A DNA stretch of 64,000 nucleotides from Patescibacteria group bacterium (GTDB lineage: Bacteria > Patescibacteriota > UBA1384 > CAJBMM01), in assembly GCA_041660565.1 (NCBI GenBank), contig JBAZWC010000002.1, positions 287,484-351,483 of the forward strand. Reading direction: 5' to 3'. Under the pieces are notes generated by a model that was given only the letters and a program-made list of their open reading frames with translations, had not been told where the DNA came from and did no database searches. Both the position numbers and the translations under genes were made by a program. Each line of letters begins with the position of its first letter. The first letter of the stretch is position 1. This document shows, piece by piece, positions 20,830 to 58,299 of this stretch.

Positions 20830-21420
20830 TTATGGTTTCACGCCGTAAACATTGATTGCTTGCTCGTAAATATCGTCAGCAACCTCATCAAAATTTAAGC
20901 TCTCGGTATGATACATAATTTTGGGCAAGGTGCTGTCGTGATAAAGCGCCAACAGTTTATATTGATACATTTTATACCACTCCACGGCGTTGTCCTCGCT
21001 TTGCCCGCGTCGTTTTAGCTCTTCTTGCCACTTGGTTTCATGAAGCGCTTTAGAGTACAGTAAGCGTTGCTTAATTATATCTTCGGGTACTTGCAATAGC
21101 ACTAGCATTGGATTGTATTCGCGAATTACTTTTTCAATTTCAACCAAGTCGGCCGGTGATCCGTTAGTAATATTTAGGTGATAAAGATGGAATCGGCAAC
21201 AAATGGTCACTTTTTTATCAGACGAGCACTCTTTTTTTAAGAACGCGGTAAGTTGCGCGATACTGTTTTTCGGATCAGGGTGCGTGTAGGTTTCAGGTGA
21301 AATCCTTTTTGACTCGTCAAAAACTTCGCATGATACGCCCCGACTTTTGAATTTTTCACCAAGAACTTTAATTACATCAGTCTTGCCACTGGTTGGTATG
21401 CCTTCAAGAATAATAATCAT
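20830..21420 (-). CDS. P-loop nucleoside/nucleotide kinase-like protein
   Basis: Walker A ILEGIPTSGKTD, about 196 aa, typical of the dNK/thymidylate-kinase-like fold. Confidence 0.6.
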   Translation of the reverse strand: MIIILEGIPTSGKTDVIKVLGEKFKSRGVSCEVFDESKRISPETYTHPDPKNSIAQLTAFLKKECSSDKKVTICCRFHLYHLNITNGSPADLVEIEKVIREYNPMLVLLQVPEDIIKQRLLYSKALHETKWQEELKRRGQSEDNAVEWYKMYQYKLLALYHDSTLPKIMYHTESLNFDEVADDIYEQAINVYGVKP

Positions 21421-32923: not shown

Positions 32924-32930
32924 ACCGCCA

Positions 32931-33013
32931 ATTTTCTATTTTTATTTTAAAATTTTAAAACATTTGGAAATTCATTTAAAATTTATAATTTATACTTTAA
33001 AATTTAAGTGCTT
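32931..33013. repeat. AT-rich repeat family F (F7) upstream of tRNA-Leu
   Basis: tttattttaaaattttaaaacatttggaaattcatttaaaatttataatttatactttaaaatttaagtgcttgggg. Preceded by the hairpin CCAGGCGGTAAACCGCC at the SBP gene stop. Confidence 0.6.
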
Positions 33014-33099
33014 GGGGATGTGGTGAAATGGCAGACACGCAGCGTTCAGGTCGCTGTGAGCGCAAGCTCGTGGAGGTTCAACTCCTCTCATCCCCACCA
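33014..33099 (+). tRNA. tRNA-Leu (anticodon CAG), long variable arm
   Basis: Acceptor GGGGATG/CATCCCC, anticodon loop TTCAGGT, T-arm GGTTCAACTCC, 3' ACCA. Confidence 0.8.
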
Positions 33100-33215
33100 T
33101 TCGACTCTCCGCCGGTCGGCGGATCGCTCACGTTCGACACCGCTACGCGGTGCTCAGGGCCTGAGTGTAATCGAAGGCATGGTCTACGACCCTGAGCTGA
33201 AGAAGTAAGGCGAAT

Positions 33216-33245
33216 GCCCTGAGAATTGTAGAGGGGCTTTTTTGT
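33216..33245 (+). terminator. Hairpin plus T-run just inside island I3
   Basis: GCCCTGAGAATTGTAGAGGGGC followed by TTTTTT. It follows a 9-codon mini-ORF (ATGGTCTACGACCCTGAGCTGAAGAAGTAA). Confidence 0.45.
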
Positions 33246-33316
33246 TGTCAAAATATCGACAAAACATAAATAATATGATAATATAATGCCAACTCGCGCG
33301 AAAGGGGGACGGATGA

Positions 33317-33850
33317 ATGCGCGTTTTGGTGGTACCAAGCAGTGGCATGGTCCCGGTTGATCAGCTTGGACCAGACACGCTGATGCGCTGCGAAAAAGCG
33401 CTTGAGCTGTGGCGGACGGGACAGTTTGGCTGCCTGGTGGTTACCGGCGGTCGGTGTCACCCGTCATACGTGGAGACACGGTCGGCTGCGGAATCGATGC
33501 AAGTGTGGTTCGATTTCGGCCGAGTTCCGCTGTCATGCATTCTGGTAGAGCCGGAGGCCAAGGACACCTTCGGAAACGCGATCAGCACCGTGGCGGGGCT
33601 TCAGCATTGGGGGATCGACACAGACAACATCACAGTGGTCAGTCACTGGTTGCACTGTGTTCGGCTCCGGATCACCTTCCGACTAGCCTGTAGGGTTCGG
33701 GTCAAGACGGTGCCGCTTTACTACCCAATCGGGTGGAAGGGCGCGTTTGCCGAGGTCGCGATGATCTGCTACCACGTGCTTGATCGGAAAGGGAATGGCT
33801 GGATTGCCCGGCGCAACCGCGCCAAGCGAACATTCTCGAAACCATCCTGA
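33317..33850 (+). CDS. DUF218/YdcF (SanA/ElyC)-like protein on GC-rich island I3
   Basis: LVVTGG and EAKDTFGNA motifs of the DUF218 family. RBS AAGGGGGA. GC-rich codons. Confidence 0.65.
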   Translation: MRVLVVPSSGMVPVDQLGPDTLMRCEKALELWRTGQFGCLVVTGGRCHPSYVETRSAAESMQVWFDFGRVPLSCILVEPEAKDTFGNAISTVAGLQHWGIDTDNITVVSHWLHCVRLRITFRLACRVRVKTVPLYYPIGWKGAFAEVAMICYHVLDRKGNGWIARRNRAKRTFSKPS

Positions 33851-33856
33851 TGTAGA

Positions 33857-34318
33857 ATGGAGGAGTCGATGTGCGACAAGTACGTATATCTCGCAGGGCC
33901 GATTGCGGGGCAGACTTACGACCAGAGCAACGACTGGCGTATCAATACCGGTGACCGGCTCAGAGAACTTGGGATGGTTCCGCTTTCACCGATGCGAGGG
34001 AAAGACCCGCAAGCGTTTGTTCCGGGGTTTGACCGTGAATCCACGCCGCTGACCTCCGCCCGTGGCATCAAGGCTCGTGATAAGTATGATGTGCACCGAT
34101 CATCGGCAGTCCTGGCCAACTTCCTTGGGGCCACGGACAAGTCTATCGGCACAGCGTGCGAATTCAGTTGGGCTGATGACGCCGGGGTGCCGGTCATCGC
34201 TGTCATGGAGCCATCGGGTAATCCGAATGATCACCCGTTCATTCGAGAAACCGCGTTCTGCGTGGTCACAACTCTTGGTGAGGCGATCGAGGTTCTCAGA
34301 TGGATCGTGCTTCCATGA
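33857..34318 (+). CDS. Nucleoside 2-deoxyribosyltransferase-like protein on GC-rich island I3
   Basis: YLAGPIAG signature of the NDT/Rcl fold. RBS GGAGGAG. Start is 7 nt after the upstream stop. Confidence 0.7.
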   Translation: MEESMCDKYVYLAGPIAGQTYDQSNDWRINTGDRLRELGMVPLSPMRGKDPQAFVPGFDRESTPLTSARGIKARDKYDVHRSSAVLANFLGATDKSIGTACEFSWADDAGVPVIAVMEPSGNPNDHPFIRETAFCVVTTLGEAIEVLRWIVLP

Positions 34319-34333
34319 CAACGAACCGTCACT

Positions 34334-34366
34334 GCCGGGGCTTAACCGCCCCGGCTATTATTTTTC
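34334..34366 (+). terminator. Intrinsic terminator closing island I3
   Basis: GCCGGGGCTTAACCGCCCCGGC followed by TATTATTTTT. Confidence 0.7.
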
Positions 34367-34435
34367 GTTGACTTTTGGTGCTGAATCACGTAATATAAAA
34401 GATAGCCGAGATGGATGGCCAGTTTTTTGTTATTT

Positions 34436-34521
34436 GGGATCGTGGTGGAATTGGCATACACAACAGGTTGAGGGCCTGTGGGAGAAATCCCGTGAGGGTT
34501 CAAGTCCCTCCGATCCCACCA
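34436..34521 (+). tRNA. tRNA-Leu (anticodon GAG), long variable arm
   Basis: Acceptor GGGATCG/CGATCCC, anticodon loop TTGAGGG, T-arm GGTTCAAGTCC, 3' ACCA. Confidence 0.8.
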
Positions 34522-34629: not shown

Positions 34630-34706
34630 GGAATCTTAGCTCAGTTGGTTAGAGCGCCTCGTTTACACCGAGGAGGTCAGTGGTCCGAGTCCACTAGGTT
34701 CCACCA
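34630..34706 (+). tRNA. tRNA-Val (anticodon TAC)
   Basis: GGAATCTTAGCTCAGTTGGTTAGAGCG.. with anticodon loop TTTACAC, 3' CCACCA. Confidence 0.82.
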
Positions 34707-34730
34707 TTCGACTTTTCGACCAAATTATTT

Positions 34731-34806
34731 GCCCAGATAGCTCAGTGGTAGAGCGCTGCCCTGAAGAGGCAGGCGTGGTCAGTCCGATTCTGACTCTGGG
34801 CACCAA
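34731..34806 (+). tRNA. tRNA-Phe (anticodon GAA)
   Basis: GCCCAGATAGCTCAGTGGTAGAGCG, anticodon loop CTGAAGA, 3' GGGCACCA. Confidence 0.8.
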
Positions 34807-47258: not shown

Positions 47259-47412
47259 GTGATTAGCTGATTAGGCTCCGCCCGTAGGGCTACTCCTCTC
47301 CGAGCCGTAGGCTCTACGAGCTGGAGGCCGGAGGGTGATTAGGGGTTCCATAGGGGCGATACCTCGTTTCACTTCGGAAACCGAAGGTTAACACGAATCG
47401 CCCGTTTCGGCG
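47256..47412. repeat. Palindromic repeat family E, copy E2 (long composite)
   Basis: GGTGATTAGCTGATTAGGCTCCGCCCGTAGGGCT..GGAGGGTGATTAGGGG. Carries additional hairpins ending CGAATCGCCCGTTTCGGCG. Confidence 0.8.
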
Positions 47413-47487
47413 TAGTTGAAGATTATCTATCGAAGTAATATATTGATGTTGTCAGTCTGAATGACTCGTATCTCAGGGGAGAAGCGC

Positions 47488-47691
47488 ATGGAAGGGAATC
47501 GTGGCCTCGCGTCGTTGGAGGATCTGGTACGGTCTATCGGCACTGATCCAATCGATCCAATGTTCGCCACGTCGAGCGACAAGGAACGATTCGATGGGTC
47601 TTTGCGGACGGTGCTGGAACCGCTCTGGGCAGAGGACGACGTTGCTCGCGCCAAGTCGGTCGAATCTGGCCGAAGTTACATCGTATATTGA
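47488..47691 (+). CDS. Hypothetical 67-aa protein, gene 1 of GC-rich micro-island I5
   Basis: RBS AGGGGAGAAG before the ATG. GC-rich. Confidence 0.5.
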   Translation: MEGNRGLASLEDLVRSIGTDPIDPMFATSSDKERFDGSLRTVLEPLWAEDDVARAKSVESGRSYIVY

Positions 47692-47715
47692 GCTACTGTC
47701 ACGGAGGTTTGTGAG

Positions 47716-47922
47716 ATGTATGACGAGGAGCTGACCCCGATAGAGAAGCTTGTCTTGTCTAACTCGGGTGGAGTGCCTGCTGCCCATCCCGTACTGGCAA
47801 CTCGGGCAGACATCGATGCGTTTGAGGGGAGAATGCGGATTGCAACAGAGCTGACTCTCAAGGCAGACCGAAGAGCCATGGATGAGTCATGGCAGGCTGC
47901 GCGCTTCAAGCTGATCGACTGA
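47716..47922 (+). CDS. Hypothetical 68-aa protein, gene 2 of GC-rich micro-island I5
   Basis: RBS GGAGG 9 nt before the ATG. Followed by an intrinsic terminator. Confidence 0.5.
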   Translation: MYDEELTPIEKLVLSNSGGVPAAHPVLATRADIDAFEGRMRIATELTLKADRRAMDESWQAARFKLID

Positions 47923-47936
47923 GTGTCGGGTGATAG

Positions 47937-47975
47937 GCCGGGTGGATGTTCCACTCCGGCCTTTCTCTTTTTAAT
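47937..47975 (+). terminator. Intrinsic terminator closing island I5
   Basis: GGCCGGGTGGATGTTCCACTCCGGCC followed by TTTCTCTTTTT. Confidence 0.65.
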
Positions 47976-48036
47976 ATTTTGATTTTGAATTTATTCCGTG
48001 CTTGGTGCTTAGAATTTAGTGCTTATTCAACCCGGC
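47963..48036. repeat. AT-rich repeat family F (F9) upstream of mreB
   Basis: tttttaatattttgattttgaatttattCCGTGCTTGGTGCTTagaatttagtgctt plus palindrome TTCAACCCGGCGGGTTGAA. Confidence 0.6.
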
Positions 48037-48091
48037 GGGTTGAATTAATCTGTCAGATTGATATAATCAGCGCCAGACGGAGATTTTTATT

Positions 48092-56404: not shown

Positions 56405-57650
56405 TATTCAACTTATTCGCGAACATTTAGACTTGGTCAAAAAAGGACTGACAAAAAAGCAAAGCAATCCAGAGCTGGCCGTTGACGCTTTCAAACTAGA
56501 CAAAGAAAAACGACGCTTGCAAACCGAAGTCGAAGCTTTTCAATCTAACTTGAATCAGGTGTCAAAAGAAATTGCCAAAGAGTTTGGTCAAAAAAAGGTT
56601 GATTTACTTAAGCAGGCGAACCAAATTTCGGAACAGATTGACAAGCATCGCCCGCATTTAGACGCGCTTGAAAAGGATTTGAATGAGGTGATGGCGCAAA
56701 TTCCAAATATGCCCCTTGACGATGTTATTGCCGGACATTCCGATAAAGATAACAAAGTTGCCTACAAAAAAGGCGATGTACCAAAATTTGGGTTTACAGT
56801 TAAAGATCATATTCAGTTGGCGGCAGATTTAGATTTAATCGAATTTGATGCGGCGGCCAAGTCTATGGGTTCACGTTTTGCGTATCTTAAAAATGAACTA
56901 GTAGTGCTTGAATTTGCTTTAATGCGCTACGGGCTAGATCAGGCGATGAAAAGTGGGTTTAAGCCCATTCTGCCTCCAATTTTATTAAATCGAGCGGCAA
57001 TGGATGCGGCGGGGTATTTGGGACAAGCCGAAGAAGAAATTTACAAAACTCAAGATGATTTATATTTAGCGGGCACCGCCGAACAGCCCCTGTTAGCTCT
57101 GCACGCTGGGCAAATGCTCAAAAAAGAAGATTTACCGTTAAGATACGTTGGATTTTCCAGCTGTTTTAGGCGTGAAGCTGGCAGCTATGGTAAAGATGTA
57201 AAAGGCATTTTACGTATGCATCAATTTCAAAAACTGGAACTATTTAGCTTTGTAGAGCCCGAAATGGCCGAACAGGAACACAAAAAGATTTTAGAGTTAG
57301 AAGAAAAACTAATGGCCAGTCTAGACATTCCGTATCAAGTAATCGACATTTGCGCGGGGGATTTAGGTTTTCCGGCCGCCAAAAAATGGGATATTGAGGC
57401 GTGGATGGCGGGGCAAAACACTTATCGCGAAACGCATAGTTGTAGCAACTGCACCGATTTTCAAGCTAGACGGATGAATATTCGGTATAAAGATGAAAAA
57501 GGCACGCGATTTGTTTATACCTTAAACGGCACTGTTTTTTCCGAACGCCCGCTAATTGCCATTTTAGAAAATAATCAACAAAAAGACGGTTCAATTAAGG
57601 TACCAAAAGTTCTAGCGCCTTACACCGGGTTTGATGTTATAAAAAAATAA
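56397..57650 (+). CDS. serS: Serine--tRNA ligase
   Basis: N-terminal coiled-coil arm, class II core, 417 aa. Overlaps the lysS stop. Confidence 0.9.
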   Translation: MIDIQLIREHLDLVKKGLTKKQSNPELAVDAFKLDKEKRRLQTEVEAFQSNLNQVSKEIAKEFGQKKVDLLKQANQISEQIDKHRPHLDALEKDLNEVMAQIPNMPLDDVIAGHSDKDNKVAYKKGDVPKFGFTVKDHIQLAADLDLIEFDAAAKSMGSRFAYLKNELVVLEFALMRYGLDQAMKSGFKPILPPILLNRAAMDAAGYLGQAEEEIYKTQDDLYLAGTAEQPLLALHAGQMLKKEDLPLRYVGFSSCFRREAGSYGKDVKGILRMHQFQKLELFSFVEPEMAEQEHKKILELEEKLMASLDIPYQVIDICAGDLGFPAAKKWDIEAWMAGQNTYRETHSCSNCTDFQARRMNIRYKDEKGTRFVYTLNGTVFSERPLIAILENNQQKDGSIKVPKVLAPYTGFDVIKK

Positions 57651-57652
57651 TT

Positions 57653-57848
57653 CCTCCTCGTCCGCCCGCTGGGCACCTTCTCCTCCACCCTCCTTCGCAA
57701 TGCTTCGGAAGGGCAGGGAGGAGAAGGGCTTTTCTGGTATTTCCCTCTCCTCTCAGAGAAGAGGGTGACCGTAGGCCGGCCACCGGCTCGTAGACCCTCC
57801 GGGCGTAAGTCCTACGGGCTGGAGCCTACGGCTCGGAGAGGTGAGGAG
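57653..57848. repeat. Composite palindromic repeat: family D (inverted) fused to a family E module (D3/E4)
   Basis: CCTCCTCGTCCGCC..CACCTTCTCCTCCACCCTCC..GGAGGAGAAGGG..CCCTCTCCTCTCAGAGAAGAGGG..CCTACGGGCTGGAGCCTACGGCTCGGAGAGGTGAGGAG. Confidence 0.8.
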
Positions 57849-57907
57849 TCTTGTATATAAAAGAACAGGACCGAGACGCGCGATGGCGTCCCGGTCCGAA
57901 AGCGGAG

Positions 57908-58141
57908 CTACTTCTCCAGCTCCTGCATGATGTGCTTGAAGTCGCCGTCGTCGAGACGTCGCGCTATTCGGTCGAATTTGCCAGCGACGTCCATTGGATC
58001 TGGGCCTTCATGTATAACAATATCTCTTCCGTCGACCATCTTGACCCTAATGTTGCTCAGGCCGGGTTGTGCTAGCGTCTGATCGGCATAAAACGGCTCG
58101 ATGCAATCGACATAGTCAGAGTTGATAACGAGCCTCTTCAC
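57908..58141 (-). CDS. Hypothetical 77-aa protein on GC-rich micro-island I6
   Basis: GTG start (or an internal ATG). The region between the repeat composite and repeat C4 is GC-rich. Confidence 0.4.
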   Translation of the reverse strand: MKRLVINSDYVDCIEPFYADQTLAQPGLSNIRVKMVDGRDIVIHEGPDPMDVAGKFDRIARRLDDGDFKHIMQELEK

Positions 58142-58299
58142 ATGCGGGACGCCTTAGGCCTTGGGCTCGCGCACGTCCACAACCGTAAAGAACGCCATTT
58201 TGCTCACCCCCTCCTTGTCGCCACGCCTAATCTGGTGTATCTTTAAGGCGTAGGTGACAGTGATATTATTACACTATTTTACGATTTATGTCAATAATT

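Follow-up and report, generated by a model that had tools for sequence, protein, structure and literature searches.

An islet of approximately 1.26 kb of foreign composition (~33107-34366) occupies the spacer between tRNA-Leu(CAG) and tRNA-Leu(GAG) on a Patescibacteria chromosome, within the 64-kb stretch of DNA that was analyzed here (hereafter, the window). The islet contains two intact ORFs and no others: ORF1, a member of the DUF218/YdcF family, and ORF2, a member of the NDT/Rcl superfamily. The reading that is considered probable, with some reservation, is that this two-gene islet is foreign, that ORF2 would cleave 2'-deoxynucleoside 5'-monophosphates (dNMPs) or swap their bases, and that the two genes are neighbors owing to their donor origin. 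The islet would thus represent a horizontal acquisition of two genes of known families, and its entry into the spacer is presumed to have been fairly recent.

Positions 33100-34366 have a GC content of 57%, compared to 44% for the window (more precisely, 0.569 for 33100-34360 versus 0.443). Among the 128 intervals of 500 bp that make up the window, the two highest in GC are 33501-34000 (0.576) and 33001-33500 (0.550), and the interval 34001-34500 (0.540) ranks fourth. At a resolution of 60 nt, GC rises to 0.63-0.68 directly 3' of tRNA-Leu(CAG) and falls to 0.38-0.40 past position 34340. Further, GC at third codon positions is 0.702 in ORF1 and 0.627 in ORF2, values that lie 7.0 and 5.0 standard deviations above the mean of the 46 other ORFs of the window (0.430 +/- 0.039, maximum 0.510). 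Synonymous codon usage likewise places ORF1 3.7 and ORF2 3.4 standard deviations away from the host mean. The sequence-only reading of this DNA had proposed a compositionally foreign island at a tRNA 3' end, and the GC, third-position GC, codon usage, and tRNA coordinates all bear this out.

The left edge of the islet coincides with the 3' end of tRNA-Leu(CAG) (33014-33099, forward strand; ARAGORN; Rfam tRNA, 50.6 bits). A repeat search and a listing of the trailers of all 8 tRNAs showed that the 7 nt that follow this gene (TTCGACT, 33100-33106, forward strand) also form the trailer of tRNA-Val. The trailer itself is thus probably native, and the foreign DNA proper is taken to start at ~33107. 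The right edge is a terminator that ends 70 nt short of tRNA-Leu(GAG) (34436-34521, forward strand; ARAGORN, Rfam tRNA), with which the host genes resume and after which come tRNA-Val (34630-34706) and tRNA-Phe (34731-34805). The intervening DNA (34361-34435) is AT-rich and host-like, with a GC of 0.35, and contains a promoter-like site ahead of tRNA-Leu(GAG) (TTGACT-17-TAATAT, 34368-34396, forward strand; 9/12 consensus matches). Within 5 kb of the islet, the neighboring genes encode SecG, a solute-binding protein, a small membrane protein, S1, an MBL-fold protein, and a DHH protein.

Between these boundaries, the islet has the appearance of a self-contained transcription unit, with a promoter-like site, two genes, and a strong terminator, all on the forward strand. 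The promoter-like site (TTGTCA-18-AATAAT, 33245-33274) is sigma-70-like, with 10/12 matches to the consensus, which is the sole basis of its detection; it is the best such site of the region, lies inside an AT-rich segment (34% GC), and is likely the promoter of a putative two-gene operon. ORF1 (33317-33850) is followed by a Shine-Dalgarno-like GGAGGAG (33859-33865, read from the sequence) that precedes the ATG at 33869, the likely start of ORF2 (33869-34318, 149 aa) and also the start chosen by NCBI. The intrinsic terminator (34334-34365) comprises a stem at 34334-34355 with 8 GC pairs, a loop of 6, and a T-rich tail. Co-transcription of ORF1 and ORF2 is likely. Translational coupling of the pair, as originally suggested, does not hold in the strict sense: the ATG of ORF2 lies 18 nt beyond the stop codon of ORF1 (33848-33850), and the two frames do not overlap.

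Upstream of the promoter-like site is a GC-rich (58%) leader (33107-33235, forward strand), identified as non-coding from its GC and six-frame translation. At its end, a weak hairpin at ~33216-33237 followed by a T-run (33238-33243) could be read by eye on the forward strand, although the scan did not report this hairpin. The leader was considered as a riboswitch, a small RNA, or a gene fragment, and each of these was rejected: there was no match in Rfam at E<=1 and none in Pfam, its predicted RNA fold was not significant (z = -1.4), and no convincing reading frame was found by six-frame translation or by GC at each codon position. The leader may have been left over from DNA that lay upstream of the operon in the donor.

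Given that the islet abuts a conserved tRNA, it might be asked if a GC-rich segment from another organism was joined to this chromosome during assembly or binning. A separately assembled Logan contig of 1634 bp from sample SRR18595301 carries an identical islet, flanked on the left by 70 nt of tRNA-Leu(CAG) and on the right by tRNA-Leu(GAG), the spacer, and the start of tRNA-Val; this is the sole sample with the organism, and the left junction of the contig ends inside the conserved tRNA. Indeed, look-ups of the exact protein sequences of ORF1, ORF2, and a downstream gene of 127 aa returned contigs of SRR18595301 only. Moreover, the terminal 30-mer at the 3' end of tRNA-Leu(CAG) is identical in unrelated organisms, having matched six unrelated tRNA-Leu(GAG) genes among metagenome contigs. 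These observations leave room for a chimera. Against it, the right junction of the Logan contig runs from the terminator of the islet into AT-rich, host-specific spacer, tRNA-Leu(GAG), and tRNA-Val, the islet is neatly bordered by a trailer of native appearance at its left end and by the promoter-like site of the next tRNA at its right end, and the contig of the metagenome-assembled genome is 374 kb long. A chimeric origin is thus considered highly improbable.

ORF1 encodes a protein of 177 aa that is predicted to be cytoplasmic and stand-alone. It is a soluble member of the DUF218/YdcF family with a nucleotide-binding (HUP-like) fold, and its initial assignment to this family was confirmed by a Pfam score well over the curated cut-off (PF02698, E = 3.9e-13, 49.9 bits versus 27.6). 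The protein has both the LVVTGG and EAKDTFGNA motifs, and a profile of its subfamily matches E. coli YdcF (PDB 3CA8; E = 3.6e-4); ORF1 has the YdcF-type alpha/beta nucleotide-binding fold. No soluble DUF218 member is known to have a function (YgjQ, SanA, ElyC, and YdcF are named in the family). YdcF resembles ORF1 in being soluble and stand-alone but is longer (266 aa) and only 17% identical, whereas SanA and ElyC are membrane-anchored and ORF1 has no membrane anchor. The subfamily of ORF1 is distinct, with proteins of ~180 aa and 232 relatives, the closest of which is 44% identical, and it retains E78, T84, and H113. A putative Thr/His/Glu triad has been described for SanA (PMC12176290), and the conserved residues of ORF1 may be its counterparts. 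ORF1 may be an enzyme whose ligand is nucleotide-linked or SAM-like. In other genomes, the subfamily gene shares the GC content of its host and stands singly among housekeeping genes, with neighbors that include gyrase/IF-2, PFOR, SHMT/epimerase, and TrmD. Separately, an apparent mention of 'DUF218' in a CBASS paper proved to be a prefix match to DUF2188 and is irrelevant here.

ORF2 carries the YLAGP motif, and its best Pfam family is PF05014 (E = 1.8e-6), although its score of 28.5 bits falls 0.3 bits under the gathering cut-off of 28.8; a precomputed database annotation assigns PF05014 to an identical protein. When the family profile of ORF2 was compared to the PDB, BlsM ranked first (E = 1.6e-6), with BcmB, MilB, and Rcl next; the protein has the flavodoxin-like NDT fold. 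Rcl (DNPH1) is a 2'-deoxynucleoside 5'-phosphate N-hydrolase, and MilB, BlsM, and BcmB are CMP/hmCMP N-glycosidases. Among 56 members of the ORF2 family, Y7, D71, and E98 are invariant, constituting the Tyr/Asp/Glu catalytic triad of the superfamily, and in the alignment the positions of D71 and E98 are those of the Asp and Glu in BlsM, BcmB, MilB, and Rcl. S92 and G94 are also invariant, giving the motif Ser-x-Gly-x-x-x-Glu, and Ser92, Gly94, and Glu98 align with 'SPGTHVE' in MilB and 'SLGVGYE' in Rcl (within 'PSLGVGYELG'). Profile, fold, and residue alignment thus uphold the earlier placement of ORF2 in the NDT/Rcl superfamily with a catalytic Glu.

The residues that surround the catalytic Glu bear on the substrate. 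The Asp...Ser-x-Gly-x-x-x-Glu layout is shared by ORF2 with Rcl/DNPH1, MilB, BlsM, and BcmB, and in MilB, Ser97 and Gly99 touch the phosphate while Glu103 is catalytic (PMC4081090). At the position of Ser92, nucleoside 2'-deoxyribosyltransferases have an Asp or Asn for the 5'-OH and hydrolases have small uncharged residues (PMC12884076). The deoxy-specific Rcl, like ORF2, has Tyr in its N-terminal (Y/F)LAGP motif, and this Tyr bars ribo-substrates according to PMC12884076, which cites Sikowitz 2013 on this point. ORF2 therefore carries the marks of Rcl/DNPH1-like dNMP N-glycosidases (the Tyr, and Ser-x-Gly before the catalytic Glu) and lacks that of classical transferases (EC 2.4.2.6), an Asp or Asn six residues before the Glu. 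Since Ser92-x-Gly94 stands where true nucleoside transferases have Asp or Asn, dNMP cleavage or transfer would be the most likely activity of ORF2. Specifically, the enzyme may split dNMPs into a free base and deoxyribose 5-phosphate, or transfer the deoxyribose phosphate onto a different base; either reaction would proceed by a covalent intermediate on Glu98, with Tyr7 and Asp71 as the other catalytic residues. A water-excluding proline is typical of transferases; the invariant Pro41 could be this residue, and its role bears on whether water or a base would be the acceptor. Despite the shared layout, ORF2 is only 14-21% identical to Rcl/DNPH1, MilB, BlsM, and BcmB, has invariant motifs peculiar to its own family (SPMRGK and R70-D71-x-x-D74), and belongs to a clade that is mainly phage-borne. 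In fold searches, true nucleoside transferases rank as high as nucleotide hydrolases, so that the substrate assignment rests on one motif and on gene neighborhood.

That neighborhood comes largely from viruses. The ORF2 clade is found mostly in phages, with 274 IMG/VR contigs (the closest 51% identical), and isolated phages with a gene of this clade include Tunturi_5 and BDU-MI-1; a tblastn search of 50,697 phage records with ORF2 matched four only, namely those two, MTATph1, and CRP-7. A dNMP kinase is encoded directly 3' of the ORF2-clade gene in 19 of 84 loci, a NUDIX gene lies directly upstream in one locus (L037) that is among the three closest (51%) viral relatives of ORF2, and a ribonucleotide reductase adjoins some members of the clade. 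Together with the Ser-x-Gly-x-x-x-Glu motif, these phage neighborhoods favor a 5'-phosphorylated deoxynucleotide as the substrate, as in Rcl/DNPH1, MilB, and DmtZ, and ORF2 is accordingly more likely, as judged from sequence features, a dNMP N-glycosidase or phosphodeoxyribosyltransferase than a nucleoside transferase. Classical enzymes (Lactobacillus NDT/PDT; bacterial 7O62, 6EVS, and 8RH3) share the Tyr/Asp/Glu triad with ORF2, whose best Pfam family is PF05014 at a score just below the cut-off, but they bind the 5'-OH by Asp or Asn where ORF2 has Ser, and the neighbors of ORF2 relatives act at the nucleotide level (dNMP kinase, NUDIX, ribonucleotide reductase). The suggestion that ORF2 provides nucleoside salvage as a classical transferase is thus favored neither by its active-site motif nor by the phage neighborhoods.

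A close parallel is DmtZ, an NDT-family enzyme of Z-genome phages that acts both as a dAMP hydrolase and as a deoxyribose-5-phosphate transferase; it eliminates dAMP and is either fused to the dUTPase-like protein DutZ or encoded next to it (PMC12884076). DmtZ and the ORF2 clade are both phage members of the NDT superfamily, with action on dNMPs shown for the former and predicted for the latter, and each can have a dNMP-producing neighbor (DutZ for DmtZ, and the NUDIX protein of the locus above for the ORF2 clade). However, none of the tblastn matches of ORF2 is a Z-genome phage, so its clade differs from that of DmtZ; ORF2 also has Asp71 in place of Asn77 of DmtZ and lacks a PurZ context. This parallel also invites the idea that the islet is a phage-derived nucleotide-pool module kept for defense or counter-defense, for example to destroy particular dNMPs during infection, and the elimination of dAMP by DmtZ (PMC12884076) and the association of the phage clade with nucleotide-pool enzymes fit this idea. 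Nevertheless, PADLOC models match neither ORF1 nor ORF2, no further defense genes lie nearby, and the pair does not recur, rendering a role in defense most unlikely.

The co-occurrence of ORF1 and ORF2 was examined at other loci. The pair is absent from all 89 other NDT-bearing loci (1.42 Mb) and from all 9 other loci of the DUF218 subfamily, and the search for this combination elsewhere, proposed along with the original description of the pair, thus yielded no recurrence and no sign of a functional pair. The habitats of the two families also differ, the NDT clade being mostly phage-borne and the DUF218 subfamily standing singly among housekeeping genes. An alternative is that ORF2 is a classical transferase for nucleoside salvage or base exchange in a reduced organism and that the DUF218 protein cooperates with it, the two genes forming a new module. 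The distance of only 18 nt between the genes, the single promoter and terminator, and the retention by each ORF of the conserved residues of its family are all compatible with such a module, which is nonetheless unlikely: the Ser at the 5'-OH position has as its counterpart in MilB and Rcl a Ser that binds phosphate (PMC4081090; PMC12884076), phage relatives beside a dNMP kinase or NUDIX gene point to nucleotide-level chemistry, and the pair is missing from the 89 and 9 loci. Chance adjacency in the donor is more likely than a functional pairing; that is, ORF1 and ORF2 would be adjacent because they were neighbors on the donor DNA and not because they form a conserved system. A true operon would likewise show closely spaced genes of similar GC, so that a functional link keeps some probability. 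A P-loop gene at 20830-21420, once suggested to complement ORF2 as a nucleoside kinase, encodes a KTI12-like P-loop protein of host composition that lies 12 kb away on the other strand, with no link to the islet. A KTI12-like neighbor is also present beside one DUF218 homolog (L002), and this connection was dismissed since the two P-loop proteins share the P-loop alone.

How the DNA entered is a separate matter. The foreign two-gene islet may have arrived on a tRNA-targeting element that has since decayed, or by homologous recombination on one side only, with the conserved tRNA gene as the anchor. The first of these routes corresponds to a sub-case of the preferred reading, concerning entry alone, in which a prophage or integrative element had tRNA-Leu(CAG) as its target, with attachment at the 3' end of this gene, and the islet is all that survived once the integrase and nearly everything else had been lost. 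Atypical composition beside a tRNA 3' end is a recognized mark of genomic islands, and the islet displays it; like tRNA-associated islands and integrative elements, it has a foreign composition, a start at the tRNA 3' end, and cargo with its own promoter and terminator. The position of the islet exactly at the tRNA 3' end, the mostly phage-borne ORF2 clade, and a GC-rich non-coding leader that resembles leftover DNA agree with such a remnant. Yet the islet differs from these elements in being only 1.26 kb long and in lacking an integrase, att direct repeats, and mobility genes. The absence of an integrase or recombinase, noted at the outset, extends to 5 kb on both sides. Direct repeats of the tRNA 3' end, for which a search with relaxed matching had been proposed, were not found: with 7-nt seeds, no copy of the tRNA-Leu(CAG) end was found near 34300-34435, and the matches were solely to the following tRNAs, at their homologous ends, leaving the right boundary without a repeat. 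Additionally, a 25-mer of the tRNA-Leu(CAG) 3' end, as a candidate attP, matched no viral contig, and searches of phage records and viral contigs, including one with a narrower alignment, gave no relative of the ORF1 subfamily. A decayed element is thus a possible, if somewhat doubtful, origin.

Concerning the donor, a blastn search of the islet against plasmids and phages gave no match, and since the closest relatives are 44% (DUF218) and 51% (NDT) identical, the donor lineage is unsampled. On the side of the host, the S1 protein encoded near the islet was compared to 185,579 species genomes (one per species), and the best match was 43% identical, with no syntenic relative.

Overall, the islet is best viewed as a fairly ordinary gene acquisition and not as a new system; both ORFs belong to known families that NCBI already names in its annotation, and the stakes are modest. 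A bolder proposal, that ORF1 and ORF2 form a real two-enzyme module from a phage or a GC-rich neighbor, is regarded as very unlikely. If true, ORF2 would free or swap the base of dNMPs and the resulting nucleotide or sugar phosphate would be the substrate of ORF1, allowing biosynthetically poor, symbiotic Patescibacteria to dismantle or re-base the deoxynucleotides of scavenged DNA, and this would be the first biochemical role for the soluble DUF218 family. The more useful by-product of the study of this islet is the phage-borne ORF2-like clade, which is uncharacterized and constitutes a reasonable candidate for another phage enzyme that, like DmtZ, cleaves dNMPs or swaps their bases. The islet itself is a clean, well-bounded example, from a streamlined Patescibacteria genome, of a tiny piece of foreign DNA inserted at a tRNA gene, and as an insert without mobility genes, it bears on DNA uptake by such organisms.

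The GC-rich island that a sequence-only reading had placed between tRNA-Leu(CAG) and tRNA-Leu(GAG) is borne out by tRNA calls, GC content, GC3, and codon usage. The two tRNA genes (33014-33099 and 34436-34521, respectively), followed by tRNA-Val and tRNA-Phe, all lie on the + strand and were called by ARAGORN and Rfam. The DNA separating the two Leu tRNAs is 56.9% GC versus 44.3% for the window, and the two GC-richest of 128 500-bp windows are 33001-33500 and 33501-34000; at a 60-nt scale, GC is 0.63-0.68 immediately 3' of tRNA-Leu(CAG) and ~0.38 beyond 34340. Its two genes, a DUF218/YdcF-family gene (ORF1) and a gene of the nucleoside 2-deoxyribosyltransferase (NDT)/Rcl superfamily (ORF2), have GC3 values of 0.70 and 0.63, which are 7 and 5 sd above those of the 46 other ORFs in the window (0.43 +/- 0.04, maximum 0.51), and in synonymous codon usage the two genes deviate from the host mean by 3.7 and 3.4 sd. 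The seven bases 3' of the CCA end of tRNA-Leu(CAG), TTCGACT, recur behind tRNA-Val, which puts the probable start of the foreign DNA near 33107, a few bases past tRNA-Leu(CAG). The longer trailer reads CCA-TTCGACT(C/T)T(C/T)CG at 33097-33111 for tRNA-Leu(CAG) and at 34704-34718 for tRNA-Val; CCA-TTC is common to both and to tRNA-Leu(GAG), and the shared trailer may direct 3' processing of these clustered tRNAs. On the 5' side of tRNA-Leu(CAG), 32930-33005 is extremely AT-rich (8% GC at 32940-32999) and contains several promoter-like sites that overlap one another, as well as TTTAAAATTT-type motifs that are repeated and inverted.

A separately assembled 1634-bp contig from run SRR18595301 (L001) carries an identical islet sequence and continues on its right side through the host-specific spacer into tRNA-Leu(GAG) and tRNA-Val. 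The right-hand junction is thus present in a separate assembly, making it unlikely that the islet is an assembly chimera, although on its left side this contig extends only into tRNA-Leu(CAG). The islet is a real and very small horizontal acquisition, which we infer to be recent, of two genes from known families that are already annotated under their family names; the donor lineage is unsampled. Further GC-elevated stretches (0.53-0.54) at 47300-48090 and 57650-58288, one preceding a MreB-like gene and the other SecA, lack a long ORF; only ORFs of 68-77 aa were found, with no Pfam match and no Rfam family, and these stretches may be more small foreign inserts.

The islet is a neat, self-contained unit placed in the tRNA spacer, with all its features on the + strand. 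A GC-rich leader of 130 nt from ~33107 has no convincing coding frame, does not fold significantly (z = -1.4), and matches nothing in Rfam or Pfam; it is followed by an AT-rich segment with the region's best promoter-like site (TTGTCA-18-AATAAT, 33245-33274). ORF1 (33317-33850, in a 177-aa reading) is followed by ORF2, whose likely ATG at 33869 is preceded by GGAGGAG (149 aa as called by NCBI). The strong terminator suggested for the right end is present at 34334-34355 (8 GC pairs, then a T-rich tail), and directly 3' of it, ahead of tRNA-Leu(GAG), a promoter-like TTGACT-17-TAATAT lies in host-like AT-rich DNA. Of the translational coupling that had been proposed, co-transcription of the two genes is probable, but they are separated by an 18-nt gap without overlap.

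As had been noted, the islet lacks an integrase, and no recombinase gene of any kind lies inside it or in the 5 kb to either side; the proposed check for att-like repeats found none at the islet, and no copy of the tRNA-Leu(CAG) 3' end was detected in viral contigs. Two routes of entry both fit these data, neither being preferred. A tRNA-targeting element may have inserted and decayed to a stub. Alternatively, foreign DNA may have been taken up and have entered by homologous recombination on one side only, at the conserved tRNA gene, its right-hand end being joined illegitimately. Six unrelated metagenome contigs (L121-L126, 44-56% GC) carry tRNA-Leu(GAG) genes whose 3' ends match the last 30 nt of tRNA-Leu(CAG) exactly, and such identity across unrelated organisms could provide a cross-lineage recombination anchor.

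The assignment of ORF1 to DUF218 is confirmed by Pfam (E 3.9e-13, far over the cut-off). HMMER, run exhaustively against 1.84 billion representative proteins, recovered 232 relatives (E<=1e-3); almost all are 170-190 aa long, the closest are only 43-44% identical, and just two are named, labelled Patescibacteria and Omnitrophota. Conserved positions include W32, G44, G45, D83, H113, R116, H153, D156, G159, and R171. In many genomes, homologues match the 177-aa reading (ATG 33317) from its residue 1-2 onwards and share the N-terminus M-R-x-L-x-V-P, so the start of the 167-aa NCBI product, which excludes 33317-33346, looks 10 codons short. In the literature, YdcF is a soluble protein that binds SAM and has no assigned role; SanA and ElyC, its membrane-anchored paralogues, carry a putative Thr/His/Glu triad and influence the synthesis of peptidoglycan and ECA (PMC12176290). 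Elsewhere (5 contexts, 9 loci), the DUF218 subfamily gene matches its surroundings in GC and stands alone amid housekeeping or envelope-sugar genes (gyrase/IF-2, PFOR, SHMT/epimerase, TrmD, glycosyltransferases). Searches for ORF1 relatives came up empty in 50,697 phage records, in the regions flanking 80 viral NDT loci, and in a pattern scan of viral contigs.

The search for the gene pair in other genomes, as had been advised, used HMMs of both families on all fetched loci (2.0 Mb) and found the two together only in the window and its same-sample copy. The DUF218 subfamily was absent from 89 other NDT loci (1.42 Mb) and the NDT clade from the 9 other DUF218 loci; the literature searched makes no mention of both families together, and no PADLOC model matches ORF1 or ORF2. 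Absent from all other loci searched, the pairing is unique so far and most plausibly reflects chance gene order in the donor; the tight spacing and common promoter and terminator give a genuine functional link a low probability.

ORF2 scores 28.5 bits against Pfam PF05014 (cut-off 28.8) and has 89 homologues at identities of <=50%. Eleven residues invariant in a 56-sequence family alignment (Y7, G10, P41, R43, K45, R70, D71, D74, S92, G94, and E98) are all present in ORF2, and the top PDB sequence matches of the family profile are the nucleotide N-glycosidases BlsM (1.6e-6), then BcmB, MilB, and Rcl. The family motif vSiGtvvE aligns with pSPGTHVE in BlsM and MilB and with PSLGVGYE in Rcl. The phosphate-binding residues of MilB are Ser97 and Gly99, and its catalytic residue is Glu103 (PMC4081090). 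At the position of the motif Ser, Asp or Asn holds the 5'-OH in NDTs, whereas hydrolases have small uncharged residues, and an N-terminal Tyr excludes ribo-substrates (PMC12884076). Given the Ser-x-Gly alignment and these residue roles, ORF2 is predicted to act on a 2'-deoxynucleoside 5'-monophosphate, with water or a base as acceptor. This prediction draws on one motif and the gene neighbourhood because the fold ranking fails to split hydrolases from transferases. The earlier proposal of a nucleoside-salvage NDT with a novel partner is partly supported, in its family placement and catalytic Glu; the Ser-x-Gly motif, the dNMP-level neighbours of ORF2 relatives, and the non-recurrence of the pair speak against the remainder. 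A gene at 20830-21420 (- strand), suggested to be a complementing nucleoside kinase, encodes a KTI12-like P-loop protein (Pfam E 3.2e-5) with host-like GC (0.41), is flanked by the genes for a MiaA-like IPP transferase and ATP synthase epsilon, and has nothing linking it to the islet.

Relatives of ORF2 occur on 274 IMG/VR contigs (the closest 51% identical), and their other metagenome contexts are phage-like in appearance too. Among isolated phages, the relative in Tunturiibacter phage Tunturi_5 (43%) adjoins ribonucleotide reductase, and that in Bradyrhizobium phage BDU-MI-1 is flanked by an A1-like protein and a dNMP kinase. When same-strand neighbours were clustered across 84 phage-like loci, not de-replicated, the commonest partner was a dNMP kinase (PF21448; 19 loci, median 38 nt downstream). 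In L037, one of the three closest viral relatives (51%), a NUDIX hydrolase overlaps the start of the ORF2 relative. T5 A1-like proteins also recur beside the clade gene. This neighbourhood would fit a deoxynucleotide-acting enzyme with which phages manipulate the nucleotide pool; DmtZ and DutZ of Z-genome phages offer a parallel (PMC12884076). The phage-borne clade (L035-L114 from IMG/VR, L033, and L034) is uncharacterised and has invariant SPMRGK, R-D-x-x-D, and S-x-G-T-x-x-E motifs. Its members are candidates for a phage enzyme that either acts as a dNMP N-glycosidase or swaps bases, and this clade, rather than the islet itself, is the more promising thread.
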